Below, piece after piece: positions 3,535 through 19,383 of a DNA stretch of 22,110 bases. The stretch is from a virus (Duplodnaviria; Heunggongvirae; Uroviricota; Caudoviricetes), in the IMG/VR virus record IMGVR_UViG_2734482783_000015, positions 1 through 22,110 of that record. The stretch is one strand, 5' to 3'. Position 1 is the first letter of the stretch. Each line of letters opens with the position of its first letter. The notes beneath the pieces were generated by a model that was not told the DNA's origin, did not search any database, and saw only the letters and a program-made list of their open reading frames with translations. A program made the translations under genes and the position numbers.

Positions 3535-3816
3535 ATGGGTATTCGCATCGAAGTTGGCGACAAATGGGTTATTACCAGCGACCAATATCAATTCATCCTG
3601 AATGAAAAGAAAGTCGTTAAGTCCGGTAAAAAAGCTGGTGAAGAATGGCTCGACACTATCGGCTATTATCCGAAGATTAACCAGCTTATTTCCGGCCTGA
3701 TACACAATCAGATTCATGGCTCGGATATTACTGCCATTGATGCTATGGCAGTAGAAATTGAGCGGGTAGGGCAACTATGCATAGCAGCCATTCAAGGGGC
3801 TAGCGTTGATGCATAG
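3535..3816 (+). CDS. Hypothetical early protein
   Basis: 93-aa ORF immediately following the zinc-finger gene; its end overlaps the gene A start region. No motif recognised. Confidence 0.55.
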   Translation: MGIRIEVGDKWVITSDQYQFILNEKKVVKSGKKAGEEWLDTIGYYPKINQLISGLIHNQIHGSDITAIDAMAVEIERVGQLCIAAIQGASVDA

Positions 3817-6055
3817 CTCTATGGTTGCTTATGCTTATCCGTGGAATGCTCCACGGTCGGCAATAGCCAGCCCATATCTCACCTACGACCAACAGTATCG
3901 CCGCGACCGTATGTTCGCGGCTTTGCTGCATGCGAGAAAGGTGCTTTCTCTCCAGCCTGAGTGCGTGCGTTTTGACGTTTATCGCACCGCTGCAGTGCTG
4001 GAGCAAAATCAGGGCAGTCAACGAGCCAATGCCTTTTTAATCAGCTTCTGCAAAAAGGCATTGCCGCGTCTTGAACTGGTCGTAAAAAAATATGAGTGTG
4101 TAGGTATCAACAGCAACGTATCAGCCGCTGTTTTTGGCGGTCTTTTTGATACCCAGCTTATGCAATATCTTGCGTCACGCATGGTTAATATGGTTGCCAG
4201 ATATAACCGCCTCCCGGATATGTCGCGCGCCGATATTGACCTGCTGGCCTCTGATATCGCTAATTTCATTCGCGCTGAACTGGCTGACATTGATGACACC
4301 GGATTTAGCGAGCTTAAAACGCTGTACACCTGGTACATGCGAGCCGGTTTCATTTCCCTGCAATTCAACGTTACCCCGCCGCATTGGGAGAGGGTGACAA
4401 AGAAATATGTTGGTGAGGATGAAATAGCCCCTGCAATCACTCGCATGTTTAATGAGGTTTGGTGGCGTGGCCGATTACGACGCATTGCGGCTGCATGGCG
4501 CGAACACCTGCACATTGCCGTTGGCAACGTCAGCAAGAAAAAGCATGCTTACGCGAGTAAAAACTGCGTGACCGACTGGCGCGAGCAGAAGCGCCGCACG
4601 CGTGAATTTCTCAAGGGGCTGGATCTCGAAGACGAAGACGGCAACCGCATCAGCCTGATTGAAAAATACGATGGATCGGTCGCTAACCCTGCGATACGTC
4701 GCTGCGAGCTGATGACCCGCATCCGTGGGTTTGAAAATATCTGCAATGAGCTCGGTTATGTCGGTGAGTTTTATACCCTGACTGCGCCGTCAAAATATCA
4801 CGCCACAACTAAGGCGGGTTACCGTAACACCAAATGGAAAGGAGCCAGCCCGTCGGACACGCAAAGTTATCTCACCGGCCTTTGGGCGCGCATTCGTGCC
4901 AAACTACATCGGGAAGAAATCCGCATTTTCGGCATCCGTGTTGCCGAACCTCATCACGACGGAACGCCACACTGGCACATGCTTATGTTCATGTTGCCGG
5001 AAGACGTCGAGCGCGTGCGCCTCATCATCCGTGATTATGCGTGGGAGGAAGACCTCCACGAACTGAGAAGCGATAAAGCCAAAAAAGCGCGCTTTCATGC
5101 CGAGGCCATTGACCCGGAAAAAGGCAGCGCTACCGGCTATGTTGCTAAATACATTTCGAAAAATATCGACGGCTATGCTCTTGATGGTGAAACCGATGAC
5201 GAAAGCGGTGAGCTGCTGAAAGAGACAGCCCCCGCTGTATCAGCATGGGCGGCGCGCTGGCACATCCGTCAATTCCAGTTTATCGGCGGTGCGCCGGTGA
5301 CGGTCTACCGTGAATTGCGTCGTCTCGCCGATACCGAGACCGCGCACGGTCTGAGCGTTGAATTTGCCGCCGTCCATGATGCCGCTGACGCCGGTGACTG
5401 GGCTGGTTACGTTAATGCGCAGGGTGGCCCGTTTGTCCGTCGCGATGATTTGCAGGTGCGCACGCTTTATGAACCGCGCGCCGAGTTTAACCTGTATGGT
5501 GAGGAAACCGTCTGCATCCGTGGCGTGTACGATTCTGCTGTCGGTGCTGGTACCCCGATTTTAACCCGGCTAACGCAGTGGAAAATTGTACCGAAGCGTG
5601 CCGTTGATTTGGCCGTTGACGTTAAGGGCGCTCCTGCGCCCTCTCGGAGTTCTGTCAATAACTGTACGGGAAGCGAAAGCGATCCACCGGAACTCGATTT
5701 ATCAAAACCCCTGAATCGACGTGAAAAGCGAGAGTTAACAAACCGAATCAGGAAGCAAAAGCCAGCAATGCGGCGAAAATTCATCCACGGAACGGATGAA
5801 CAAAATGCAGCTATAGCGAAAACTATTGGCGAGATACATCTGACAACCGGCATAAATATCAGCCGGGGTGAAGCCCTGCACCTGATGGCAGGTGGTAAAA
5901 GTTGCTTTGACGGTAAATGGTTGCGAGGAACGGCCACAGGAGAAATATTTACCACGGCGCCATCACATCAGGCGAAAGTTAAGGCGTATCGGACCAAAGC
6001 TACAGAAATCCTCAATCGTGTTGCGGTTTTAGCGGAGCTAGCAACGGAAATATAA
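3809..6055 (+). CDS. A: Rolling-circle replication initiator endonuclease (P2 gpA family)
   Basis: ~748-aa ORF (ATG 3809, AAGGGG 9 nt upstream). Contains an HUH-type motif (HDGTPHWHMLMF) and a downstream tyrosine motif (YVAKYISKNIDGY), as in P2 A. Last gene of the early operon, as in P2/186. Confidence 0.92.
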   Translation: MHSSMVAYAYPWNAPRSAIASPYLTYDQQYRRDRMFAALLHARKVLSLQPECVRFDVYRTAAVLEQNQGSQRANAFLISFCKKALPRLELVVKKYECVGINSNVSAAVFGGLFDTQLMQYLASRMVNMVARYNRLPDMSRADIDLLASDIANFIRAELADIDDTGFSELKTLYTWYMRAGFISLQFNVTPPHWERVTKKYVGEDEIAPAITRMFNEVWWRGRLRRIAAAWREHLHIAVGNVSKKKHAYASKNCVTDWREQKRRTREFLKGLDLEDEDGNRISLIEKYDGSVANPAIRRCELMTRIRGFENICNELGYVGEFYTLTAPSKYHATTKAGYRNTKWKGASPSDTQSYLTGLWARIRAKLHREEIRIFGIRVAEPHHDGTPHWHMLMFMLPEDVERVRLIIRDYAWEEDLHELRSDKAKKARFHAEAIDPEKGSATGYVAKYISKNIDGYALDGETDDESGELLKETAPAVSAWAARWHIRQFQFIGGAPVTVYRELRRLADTETAHGLSVEFAAVHDAADAGDWAGYVNAQGGPFVRRDDLQVRTLYEPRAEFNLYGEETVCIRGVYDSAVGAGTPILTRLTQWKIVPKRAVDLAVDVKGAPAPSRSSVNNCTGSESDPPELDLSKPLNRREKRELTNRIRKQKPAMRRKFIHGTDEQNAAIAKTIGEIHLTTGINISRGEALHLMAGGKSCFDGKWLRGTATGEIFTTAPSHQAKVKAYRTKATEILNRVAVLAELATEI

Positions 6056-16394: not shown

Positions 16395-16824
16395 CGCCGT
16401 GCCGGTGCTGGCACGAAACCCCGATATGATGCGTGTCTTTATCGACAACGGGAATCTGGCCTCGACGCTGGCGACGTCGCTGTCGTTTGAGAACCGGTAC
16501 ACGCTGAATGTGGTGGTGACCGATTTCACGGATGATATCGAGCTGTTACTCGTCCCGATTCAGGCGTGGCTACGCATACATCAGGCTGACATTATGACGA
16601 CCGATGAAGGGCGTAAAAAGGGATTCACCTATTTTGCCGATATCAACGACAACGACAGCGTCGATATCAGTATCAGTCTGATGCTGACCGAGCGCACTAT
16701 CGTTAAAGAACAGGGGGATAAGCTTCACGTTGAACAGGCTGAAGAGCCGCAGCCGCCGGAGCCCGTTACCCGGCCAGTTGAGCTGTATGTTAACGGTGAG
16801 CTCGTGAGTCGATTGCATGAATGA
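16357..16824 (+). CDS. R: Tail completion protein R (P2 gpR family)
   Basis: 155-aa ORF, the same length as P2 gpR, directly after the lysis cassette. Confidence 0.85.
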   Translation: MYKPKSLRKALTDAVPVLARNPDMMRVFIDNGNLASTLATSLSFENRYTLNVVVTDFTDDIELLLVPIQAWLRIHQADIMTTDEGRKKGFTYFADINDNDSVDISISLMLTERTIVKEQGDKLHVEQAEEPQPPEPVTRPVELYVNGELVSRLHE

Positions 16825-17284
16825 CTTTAAACCCTTTGACGATACGCTCACGGGGCTGATAGCGGCGCTGTCTCCTGCCGCCCGTCGCAGAATGGCCGCA
16901 GATATCGCTAAGACCCTGCGAGCCCGTCAACAGCGCCGGATTAAAATGCAGAAAGCCCCGGACGGGACACCTTACGCCGCCCGAAAACGCCAGCCGGTAA
17001 AAGCCAAAACAGGCCGGGTTAAGCGGGAAATGTTCGCTAAGCTCCGCACCAGTCGCTTTATGAAAGCCACAGCGGGGAATGACTCGGCGGTCGTGGAATT
17101 TACCGGCAAGGTACAACGGATGGCGAATGTGCATCAGTACGGTCTCAAAGATAAGCCTGGGCGAAACAGTGCGCCGGTACAGTATGACGCCCGAATGCTT
17201 ATCGGGTTTGATCATGAATCAAAAAATATGATTCATGACATAATTATGGTTTCTTTAGCTGAGGCGGCTAGATCTATTGATTGA
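16817..17284 (+). CDS. S: Tail completion / virion morphogenesis protein S (P2 gpS family)
   Basis: 155-aa ORF overlapping the R stop (ATGAATGA). The last ~20 codons and the stop lie in AT-rich DNA that continues into the downstream cargo gene. Confidence 0.85.
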   Translation: MNDFKPFDDTLTGLIAALSPAARRRMAADIAKTLRARQQRRIKMQKAPDGTPYAARKRQPVKAKTGRVKREMFAKLRTSRFMKATAGNDSAVVEFTGKVQRMANVHQYGLKDKPGRNSAPVQYDARMLIGFDHESKNMIHDIIMVSLAEAARSID

Positions 17285-17321
17285 TTTTATGTATTTTATT
17301 TTCTATACAAGTGAGGATGTT

Positions 17322-18665
17322 ATGGAAAATAAAAAATATCAAGTATTTGTGAGCTCTACATACGTCGATTTAATTGATGCTCGCAAAAAAATCATAGAAA
17401 CAGTCCTTAGTTTATACCACTTTCCAGTTGGCATGGAGATGTTTAGCGCTGATGACTCTGAGCAGTGGGATATAATAAAGGAGACTATTGATGCTAGTGA
17501 TTATTATGTGATTATCATTGGGCATAAGTATGGGTCCGTTTCTAAAGATGGTATTAGCTATACTGAAATGGAATATAACTATGCTAAATCATTAAATATA
17601 CCGGTGTTGGCTTTTATTAGAGGGAGGGACGTTTTAACAAAACCACATGAACGAGAAAGTGACCCTCAAAAAGAAAAGCAACTAAATGCTTTTATTGAAA
17701 AAGCTAAAGCTAACAAAATGTGTGATTTTTGGGAGACAATTGATGAATTAGCGACGAAGGTTGCTATCGCCTTACCAAAAGTAATGCGACGAAATCCACG
17801 AATAGGATGGGTGCGCGGTGACCAGGTCGCATCTAAAGAGATTACCGCCGAGTTGGCTGAGCTATCTAATGAAAATAGAAAATTAAGGGAAAAAGTCCGC
17901 GAATATGAAAGCCAATTACATAGCGATGCACCTCAATTAGAGCTGAGCATGATTGATAATGACTTAGCTTTGACGGTGGATGTGGAGTCGACTTATCAGG
18001 ATTACCTTCCACAACTATGCAAGGAAGCGGTACCTCTTGAGTTGAAGGACACTATCACCATTGATGAGATTGAATCATATAACTCTTCACTGCCTACTGA
18101 TAAAGATGTGGATTTATATAATAAAAAAATGAGATTGCACTGTAATTACAAAAACAATGCAATTACAGTGAAGCCCGTTTTAAGAAATAATGGGAGGACT
18201 TTTGCGTCAAATGTTTATGTTGAGATTGATTTTCCTGAATTCCTAATAGTGCTTAAAGGTTCTAATGAAGACTTCTTTATAAAAGAGCCGAAATTAAAAA
18301 TCCCTGAGTCCCCAATAAGTAAGCATAAAAAAAGACTCAGTGCTATAATGTCACTCGAAAATTTTAGGATGGGTATTTTTGATGAAACATCGATGGTAAT
18401 GGCTAAACCTCATTTGGAAGTGCCAGCAATAATTAAACGGATGGCTGATTTAGGAACAGTTAACCAAGATGAGTGGGTCATGAAAGAGGACCATAAAATC
18501 ACGTTGCGTGCGAAAAAAGTGTTACAGAGCTTAACTGTTGAGTATGAGGAAATAGTCATCATTCCCTTAACGATTGGCTCTGGAGTTATTAATTTTAAAA
18601 TTATATGTGAGCAATTGAAGGAGCCTGTTGTTTTTTCTCGTCAGGTTACAGTTACCCCAAGCTAG
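17322..18665 (+). CDS. Cargo protein with N-terminal DUF4062-like domain and uncharacterised C-terminal domain (candidate defence effector)
   Basis: AT-rich ORF between S and V. I chose ATG 17322 (GAGGA at 17313-17317), giving 447 aa; the ORF track extends to 17277. The N-terminal ~100 aa (KKYQVFVSSTYVDLIDARKKII…HFPVGMEMFSADD…DYYVIIIGHKYGS…GISYTEMEYNYA…IPVLAFI) matches the DUF4062 pattern as I remember it. A coiled-coil-like linker (ELAELSNENRKLREKVREYESQL) and ~250 aa of unknown fold follow. Confidence 0.7.
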   Translation: MENKKYQVFVSSTYVDLIDARKKIIETVLSLYHFPVGMEMFSADDSEQWDIIKETIDASDYYVIIIGHKYGSVSKDGISYTEMEYNYAKSLNIPVLAFIRGRDVLTKPHERESDPQKEKQLNAFIEKAKANKMCDFWETIDELATKVAIALPKVMRRNPRIGWVRGDQVASKEITAELAELSNENRKLREKVREYESQLHSDAPQLELSMIDNDLALTVDVESTYQDYLPQLCKEAVPLELKDTITIDEIESYNSSLPTDKDVDLYNKKMRLHCNYKNNAITVKPVLRNNGRTFASNVYVEIDFPEFLIVLKGSNEDFFIKEPKLKIPESPISKHKKRLSAIMSLENFRMGIFDETSMVMAKPHLEVPAIIKRMADLGTVNQDEWVMKEDHKITLRAKKVLQSLTVEYEEIVIIPLTIGSGVINFKIICEQLKEPVVFSRQVTVTPS

Positions 18666-18741
18666 TTTTTGTATGTTGTGCCATATCTGGTAAAACCCGC
18701 ATTAATTGCCGTCCAGAGCACCGGGCGGCATCCTTCCTTGT

Positions 18742-19383
18742 ATGAATACTCGCGCAACTCTTCAGGACGCTTTACGCCTCCTTCGCAACCTGATACGCAC
18801 CGGCGTCGTTGTCGAAGTTGACCTCGATGACGGGCGCTGTCGCGTCCAGACTGGCGGCATTGTTACCGACTGGCTTCAGTGGCTGACCACACGCGCCGGT
18901 CGTTCACGTGTCTGGTGGGCTCCGTCTGTGGGCGAGCAGGTTTTACTGCTGGCCGTGGGTGGTGAACTCGACACCGCTTTTGTGCTGCCCGGCATTTTTT
19001 CGGATGACCACCCCGCGCCGTCGGCGTCGGCTGATGCTTTTCACATCACCTTTCCTGATGGGGCTGTTATCGAGTACGAGCCGGAGACCGGCGCGCTGAC
19101 CGTGAGCGGCATTAAAACCGCAGACGTTACGGCGTCGGATTCCATCACCGCGACGGTACCGCTGGTGACGGTGAAAGCCGAGACCCGCATCACCCTCGAT
19201 ACACCGGAAGTGGTCTGCACCAACAAACTGACGACGGCGGCGCTTGAGGTACAACAAGGCGGCACCATGCGCGGAAACATCGAACACACCGACGGTACGT
19301 TTAAATCAAACGGCGTTCAGGTCGACAAACACGGTCACGGCGGTGTGCAAAAAGGTGGAGCCTGGACGGAGGGCACGAAATGA
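18742..19383 (+). CDS. V: Baseplate assembly / spike protein V (P2 gpV family)
   Basis: I chose ATG 18742 (MNT…), giving 213 aa, over the TTG 18706 start in the ORF track. Collinear with P2 gpV as I recall it (…CRVQTGG…TDWLQWLT…AGRSR…WWAPSVGEQVL…). Confidence 0.9.
   Translation: MNTRATLQDALRLLRNLIRTGVVVEVDLDDGRCRVQTGGIVTDWLQWLTTRAGRSRVWWAPSVGEQVLLLAVGGELDTAFVLPGIFSDDHPAPSASADAFHITFPDGAVIEYEPETGALTVSGIKTADVTASDSITATVPLVTVKAETRITLDTPEVVCTNKLTTAALEVQQGGTMRGNIEHTDGTFKSNGVQVDKHGHGGVQKGGAWTEGTK

Follow-up and report, generated by a model that had tools for sequence, protein, structure and literature searches.

A lineage-specific palindrome in the module-borne end of gene S at the S-V locus of a P2-like prophage

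We analysed a 22,110-nucleotide (nt) stretch of viral DNA, positions 1 to 22,110 of IMG/VR virus record IMGVR_UViG_2734482783_000015 (hereafter the window), and focused on a short palindrome in the 3' end of the tail-completion gene S, next to a cargo gene that lies between S and the baseplate gene V. The window is a P2-like prophage, and its S-cargo junction was found in identical form on 15 complete Escherichia coli chromosomes. The full open reading frame (ORF) of S spans 16817-17284 on the plus strand, and the Pfam profile Phage_tail_S matched it (E = 7e-34) through profile position 147 of 148. Codons 1-131 (16817-17209), referred to here as the S core, belong to the backbone side, have a G+C content of 0.56, end with Leu-Ile-Gly-Phe codons and share 92-95% DNA identity with relatives carrying other inserts or none. 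The remaining 24 codons (DHESKNMIHDIIMVSLAEAARSID) and the stop codon form the S tail (17210-17284, plus strand; G+C content 0.32). The palindrome, TCATGAATCA-AAAAATA-TGATTCATGA, lies at 17212-17238 within S codons 132-141, with perfect 10-nt arms (17212-17221 and 17229-17238), a 7-nt spacer and no possible outward extension, and it is identical in all members of the lineage. Across it the S frame reads GAT CAT GAA TCA AAA AAT ATG ATT CAT GAC, that is, D-H-E-S-K-N-M-I-H-D. Direct reading of the sequence thus gave the perfect 10-7-10 inverted repeat described in a first-pass annotation of this DNA. That annotation had also placed the repeat where the G+C content drops, about 45 base pairs (bp) before the S stop and about 85 bp before the cargo start; measurement gave 44 nt from the right end of the palindrome to the S stop codon and 84 nt to the cargo ATG (17322), with the G+C content falling from about 0.56-0.59 in the S body to 0.32-0.36 from the palindrome onward.

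The left boundary of the variable DNA was located by alignment with relatives and by change-point analysis across six module types. The results showed a boundary zone at 17190-17218, in which identity to relatives carrying other modules fell from about 0.94 to about 0.4. Identity was lost within this zone for most types, earlier for two of them (17142 and 17169), and in the L058 module type the break fell after the S stop. Among the E. coli relatives, one with an empty site (L001), one with an opposite-strand cargo (L002) and one with a two-gene cargo (L003) had S genes about 95% identical to that of the window until about 17195-17209, at the Gly-Phe codons. The palindrome is therefore at the left edge of the S-V insert, as had been proposed; it begins 3 nt inside the true module boundary, which is set by the end of the S core and not by the palindrome. 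The S tail beyond this boundary differed between all module types, the empty site included, while homology was kept at the protein level over about 18-24 codons. Tails beside inserts mostly had a G+C content of 0.17-0.43, and those at empty sites 0.40-0.53; the G+C content of a tail followed that of its cargo.

With the S core alone as query, we collected 80 further loci. Six tail and cargo combinations, together with empty sites, were found on S cores at least 88% identical to one another, and each insert size class had its own tail, which supports an S tail that comes with the insert. The tail of the window, with its palindrome, was always accompanied by DUF4062 cargo (15 E. coli chromosomes, four IMG/VR contigs, one metagenome contig and two further assemblies). 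Insertion-free relatives, in which the first-pass annotation would have looked for a native feature of S, carried neither this palindrome nor this S C-terminus. Its suggestion that the last 20 or so codons of S come from inserted DNA was supported, with one amendment: S cores 88-95% identical carry the six combinations, and the last 20-24 codons or so are supplied by exchangeable DNA, with the tail exchanged together with the cargo. The change is not a plain addition, however. Even phages with an empty site own a tail, and what took place is the replacement of a homologous, functional S C-terminus. These results indicate a module of three parts (S tail, cargo promoter and Swarozyc-like DUF4062 defence gene) that, judged from the sequences, is swapped as one unit between near-identical backbones.

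The insert has the properties of an S-V cassette, namely a position between S and V, variable content that includes empty sites, and a G+C content of 0.32-0.37 compared with 0.56-0.60 in the backbone. P2-like phages hold horizontally acquired genes in three regions, of which the S-V interval is one (PMC3091744), and a defence hotspot among the tail genes of these phages has been noted (PMC13586616). At the right edge of the module, conserved backbone resumes with a binding site for the pV late-promoter activator (Ogr/B-type; 18673-18700, plus strand). Its ATGTTGT motif (18673; TGT-N12-AAA) starts 69 nt before the V ATG, exactly matching the annotated P2 site, and a GTTGT...TA.A.C pattern was kept in four relatives otherwise unalignable at this edge. 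The cargo stop (18665) is therefore only 7 nt away from the activator site. Gene V (18742-19383, plus strand; 213 amino acids) was identified from the Pfam families Phage_base_V and Phage_spike and from the RefSeq annotation of relatives; by analogy with the P2 annotation, its transcript would start at the V ATG. Other S-V inserts included the two-gene insert of L003 (4884-6942), with a RipA-family octameric membrane protein, and a recurrent opposite-strand family of predicted membrane proteins of about 260-310 amino acids with a motif like DLQLLRLYHGINV (inserts of L058, L068 and L084). A megablast search of the locus against 50,697 phage records gave no match. The locus type and the domain family of the cargo are already known; that the C-terminus of S, an essential gene, and an overlapping promoter are inside the swapped unit may be new.

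The cargo gene (17322-18665, plus strand) encodes 447 amino acids with a DUF4062 (TIR-like NADase) domain (Pfam PF13271, E = 2e-28). Residues 3-209 aligned to KpSwz of the Swarozyc system (PDB 10wc, E = 3e-46), and beyond residue 209 there was no sequence match to the KpSwz auxiliary domain and none to any Pfam family. The cargo is thus a putative defence gene, apparently a Swarozyc-like NADase with a different C-terminal domain, and its C-terminal half may sense a different phage trigger. PADLOC 2023 did not recognise it. Homologues at 53-62% identity, from Klebsiella, Enterobacter, Cronobacter and others, lay between S and V in all cases examined, starting each time 37-68 nt downstream of the S gene of a P2-like phage. 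A tblastn search with the cargo returned two weak Acinetobacter phage matches only, and a scan of genome contigs returned only two distant relatives (36-40% identity), in metagenome-assembled genomes (MAGs) of Geobacteraceae and Desulfovibrionaceae, which are not informative about the junction. The two cluster members that diverge most (P0129 and P0130) are C-terminal fragments at contig ends, with the junction outside them. A TTG at 17277 would lengthen the cargo ORF by 15 upstream codons, to 462 amino acids, and at least one Salmonella record (P0122) is annotated in this way. A Shine-Dalgarno sequence, GAGGA, was read at 17313-17317 (plus strand), and its G..G positions were invariant in an alignment of 16 diverged lineages (alignment A6); conservation of this sequence and of the ATG favours 17322 as the true start. 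KpSwz constructs start at residue 15 or 16 (bioRxiv 10.64898/2026.05.01.722283), which suggests the same over-extension in the KpSwz annotation.

Upstream of this start, alignment A6 revealed a pattern common to all cassette lineages: a -35 element T(A/G)GA(C/T)N, 16-18 nt and a -10 element TAnnTT. In the window the inferred -35 is TAGATC (17269-17274, plus strand), which overlaps the last S codons and whose T and G are invariant in the 16 lineages at fixed spacing; the inferred -10 is TATTTT (17292-17297, plus strand), 17 nt after the -35, with TA..TT invariant or nearly so. From the end of the -10 to the cargo ATG there were 22-25 nt in the nine lineages where this was measurable. Besides the ribosome-binding site, these promoter positions were the sole invariant non-coding ones in the 16 lineages. 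The pattern points to a sigma70-like cargo promoter with a predicted start near 17304. A consensus scan called no promoter here, and the top score of a crude position weight matrix (PWM) was no better than that of shuffles in this AT-rich DNA; the PWM being non-discriminating in such DNA, it is positional conservation that carries the promoter claim. Within the -35 there is a Dam site, GATC (17272-17275); another GATC (17210-17213) overlaps the palindrome at its left edge. At 17286-17342, an imperfect inverted repeat of 22 nt (82%) pairs the -10 and 5' untranslated region with the first cargo codons and leaves the Shine-Dalgarno sequence in a loop of the RNA fold; in several lineages T-run/A-run dyads flank the -10 instead (L011, TTTTATGT-7-ACATAAAA; also L027, L031 and L032). 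This repeat or its equivalents could control the defence gene at the level of translation or transcription.

The position of this promoter bears on whether the palindrome is an operator of the cargo gene, as had been suggested. A search for sigma70 elements relative to the palindrome had also been proposed, and it placed the conserved -35/-10 pattern 31-60 nt downstream, so that the palindrome centre would lie near -79 relative to the predicted start. The palindrome might still be a lineage-specific protein-binding site that tunes the defence gene, either as an upstream site near -79 or as an operator on a second promoter; in the latter version a lineage-specific extended -10, TGaCATAAT (17236-17244), would be used, and its -35 and spacer region would be covered by the palindrome. 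The perfect dyad symmetry fits such a site, as does its location inside a 110-nt invariant block, and a prophage defence gene needs expression in the lysogen independent of late promoters. The extended -10-like sequence was read from the DNA and scored about the same as the conserved promoter candidate in the crude PWM. However, the palindrome was absent from all 15 other lineages of the cassette family, although all of them keep the downstream promoter, and that promoter was the only conserved non-coding pattern found. The one-gene module encodes no regulator, half-sites did not recur in the window beyond the chance rate (three matches compared with 1.55 expected), and TGaCATAAT, which overlaps the right arm and was not called by the consensus scan, is unconserved. 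A distance of 17 bp between half-site centres is not typical of dimeric operators. To our knowledge, none of the consensus sites of CRP, FNR, Fur, ArgR, Cra, LexA and IHF gives a convincing fit: the FNR-like match is TTGAT-N5-ATCAA, where we take the consensus spacing to be N4, and the TGAAT/ATTCA half-sites, which we take to be those of ArgR, are wrongly spaced. We therefore do not retain the operator proposal as it was made, and regard a lineage-specific binding site as unlikely.

Conservation of the palindrome itself was narrow. It was limited to one E. coli/Salmonella lineage, and the 15 further lineages of this cassette family, with cargo 53-62% identical, had no repeat of at least 7 bp at the equivalent codons; the best counterpart among them was AATCAT-12-ATGATT. 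Across 36 S-tail types, 30 lacked any repeat of at least 7 bp. A match to the palindrome pattern in a giant-virus MAG (L006) proved to be an unrelated tandem (ATGAATC)n repeat. By block-wise dinucleotide shuffling of the window, perfect 10-nt repeats with spacers of 0-20 nt are expected 0.61 times per 22-kb window, and at least one occurred in 36.5% of shuffles. When the S-tail peptide was preserved and its codons were redrawn, a repeat of at least 10 bp arose in 4.8% of cases with the codon usage of the cargo and in 9% with that of the pooled S tails. The palindrome is real and locally unusual, yet it is no strong outlier given its coding context. The longest perfect inverted repeat of the window lies elsewhere, at 4027-4063 (12-nt arms AATGCCTTTTTA.../...AAAAAGGCATT, 13-nt spacer), inside a 749-amino-acid ORF (3806-6055) that is presumed to be replication gene A; it might be related to an origin or be an internal terminator.

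Taken together, we consider it probable that the palindrome is an incidental, lineage-specific inverted repeat in the coding sequence of a cassette-borne S tail, and that interleaving with the promoter explains why the tail travels with the cargo. The module would be exchanged by homologous or illegitimate recombination, with the conserved S core and the pV/V region as flanks, and the tail would accompany the cargo as a result of being physically interleaved with the cargo promoter. The palindrome would then have no dedicated function and would be a product of AT-rich codons for D-H-E-S...M-I-H-D, possibly perfected by a template-switch mutation in which the usual Glu codon became CAT. In the late S mRNA the palindrome can fold into a hairpin of about -12 kcal/mol, which would be melted by ribosomes translating S.

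Several observations weigh against an incidental origin. The first concerns the CAT codon of His140 (17234-17236, plus strand), which is derived and completes three of the base pairs in the right arm. Glu (GAA or GAG) occupied this position in 62 of 75 distinct tails, P2 and several other tails read ATG ATT GAA here, and CAT was confined to the lineage of the window. With Glu at this position, the probability of a repeat of at least 10 bp falls from 0.048 to 0.003. Such a unique, arm-completing codon could reflect selection for pairing; a multi-base change in one codon would fit template-switch (quasi-palindrome) mutation equally well. There is no close outgroup (the best other tail is 58% identical), so that neither the left arm in its ancestral form nor the event can be reconstructed. 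The second is that the 1.5-kb AT-rich island contains two perfect 10-nt repeats (17212 and 18138) compared with 0.04 expected. The other one lies in the cargo ORF (18138-18170, CACTGTAATTACA-AAAACAA-TGCAATTACAGTG; outer 10 bp perfect, A-rich 7-nt loop, -11.4 kcal/mol), where relatives had single-nucleotide polymorphisms (SNPs) at 18155, 18170, 18172 and 18173; it is apparently not conserved, and such repeats thus occur in the island without being conserved. Third, the palindrome lies inside an invariant run of 110 nt (17207-17316, covering S tail and promoter), the longest SNP-free run in 3 kb, while flanking S and cargo differ by 3-6% among eight module sequences. These eight sequences represent effectively two clades (E. 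coli and Salmonella), with 183 variable sites in 3001 nt; as the run also covers the promoter and only two clades were compared, the signal is modest.

The remaining points against it come from other S tails. Over the 36 types, three repeats of at least 8 bp were found compared with 0.56 expected under the peptide-preserving null, and two of at least 10 bp compared with 0.11, an excess that is only borderline once the window, itself selected for its palindrome, is removed. The L002-type tail has a perfect 12-bp repeat with a 7-nt spacer, CTTGGCTATTAT-TGAAGTT-ATAATAGCCAAG (L002 1122-1152), which is also present in L052, L055, L056 and L060, folds at -16.1 kcal/mol and, for this peptide, has P = 0.004. 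Its position is about 20 nt past the stop of a convergent cargo gene, which is on the opposite strand and encodes a hypothetical protein of 361 amino acids; neither strand has a U-tract. The 8-bp repeat of the EPDD-type tail was absent from its closest sister lineage. On these grounds one might see hairpin repeats that evolved independently and recurrently in S tails (10 bp here, 12 bp in the L002 type, 8 bp in another DUF4062 lineage) as a component of S-V cassettes that works where the late O operon meets the defence gene, by shielding a toxic NADase gene from late read-through or by seeding, as break-prone palindromes, the rapid module swapping observed at this hotspot. We hold this to be very doubtful; if boundary hairpins did promote exchange or insulate cargo, they would offer a mechanism for the very fast turnover of defence genes reported in P2-like phages.

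The folding of the palindrome bears on a function in RNA. It reached -11.7 kcal/mol as RNA, with z = -3.9 compared with shuffles, and -8.3 kcal/mol as DNA. A hairpin in the late O-operon transcript could terminate it in part, stabilise its 3' end or make ribosomes pause near the S end, and so shield the NADase gene against strong late read-through. P2 has an annotated putative O-operon terminator hairpin just after S, and the window has no canonical terminator between S and cargo; strong hairpins were also present in or after the S tail of other module types (the 12-bp stem of the L002 type and a post-stop hairpin in L058). However, the stem is AU-rich (three of ten pairs are G-C) and is followed by CAUAAUUAUGG with no adjacent U-tract, and it was not called by a terminator scan. 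Because the stem is 44 nt upstream of the S stop, translating ribosomes would unwind it. No conserved structure was seen here in the 15 other cassette lineages or in 30 of the 36 tail types, and an Rfam search gave no match for the hairpin. An RNA role thus seems to us rather improbable. A consensus scan did find a weak terminator-like hairpin followed by a T-rich stretch at 17254-17272 (plus strand), overlapping the S end; its fold (-7.1 kcal/mol, z = -0.6) was no better than those of shuffles, and its function is doubtful.

The first-pass annotation had also offered the palindrome as a recombination junction. In this capacity it could be the site of the crossover that inserted the cassette, or a scar of that event; alternatively, it could be fragile, extruded as a cruciform or cleaved by SbcCD, and trigger breaks that promote module exchange at the adjacent conserved S core. 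It starts 3 nt past the collapse of identity between module types, its A-rich centre would favour cruciform extrusion, and perfect repeats are slightly more frequent than expected at S-core/tail junctions. However, the right edge (18660-18700) had no partner, similar repeat or half-site, the other cassettes at the S-V locus lack the palindrome, and the junctions were not fixed but fell at 17142, at 17169, at 17190-17218 or after the S stop. No recombinase is encoded in the module. For SbcCD-dependent instability, 10-bp arms around a 7-nt spacer are short. Cassette and backbone had diverged together (SNPs at about 3% in the cargo and 5% in S), and no recent transfer therefore marks this junction. 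L007-L009 had been considered as an identical cassette on diverged backbones, with a sharp crossover at 17206, and were set aside when the SNP map showed that their cargo had co-diverged by about 3%. The recombination proposal was thus not borne out, and we judge it highly improbable.

An incidental palindrome in an exchangeable S tail is accordingly the reading that we prefer. The palindrome itself is probably of little importance, and the useful result is the anatomy that surrounds it. The module illustrates how a defence gene can be packed tightly into a late operon without breaking it, its precise boundaries can be used for annotating or engineering S-V cassettes, and the Swarozyc-like NADase family is placed as a long-term resident of the S-V slot.

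The palindrome and its locus can be compared with several known systems. Quasi-palindromes are hotspots of template-switch mutation in E. coli, and the palindrome resembles them as a perfect repeat in fast-diverging sequence, completed by a multi-base change from Glu (GAA/GAG) to His (CAT). With phage and host repressor operators it shares a perfect dyad upstream of a gene that needs lysogen expression; it differs from them in that it is not conserved with the promoter, lies about 79 nt upstream and inside a translated ORF, and has no cognate regulator or repeated sites. The rho-independent terminator of the P2 O operon is likewise a hairpin near the S 3' end, but that hairpin follows the stop codon and has a 12-bp stem of mixed composition, whereas the palindrome of the window lies in the ORF, is AU-rich and has no U-tract. 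The cargo shares with Swarozyc KpSwz the N-terminal DUF4062 domain and helical stalk over residues 3-209, as well as the conserved catalytic Glu (E82 of the cargo, E97 of KpSwz, with a 15-residue N-terminal offset), and differs from it in residues of about 210-447, which have no detectable similarity to the auxiliary (portal-sensing) domain of KpSwz (bioRxiv 10.64898/2026.05.01.722283). Finally, the locus matches the P2 orf30 locus in having a slot bounded by S, where the O operon ends, and by the pV activator site, which in both is 69 nt away from the V ATG, and in holding low-G+C, non-essential cargo whose content varies among close relatives. In P2, orf30 lies on the opposite strand, a putative terminator is annotated after S and the S tail is higher in G+C content, whereas in the window the cargo is co-oriented, the promoter -35 overlaps the S end and about 24 S codons belong to the swapped unit.

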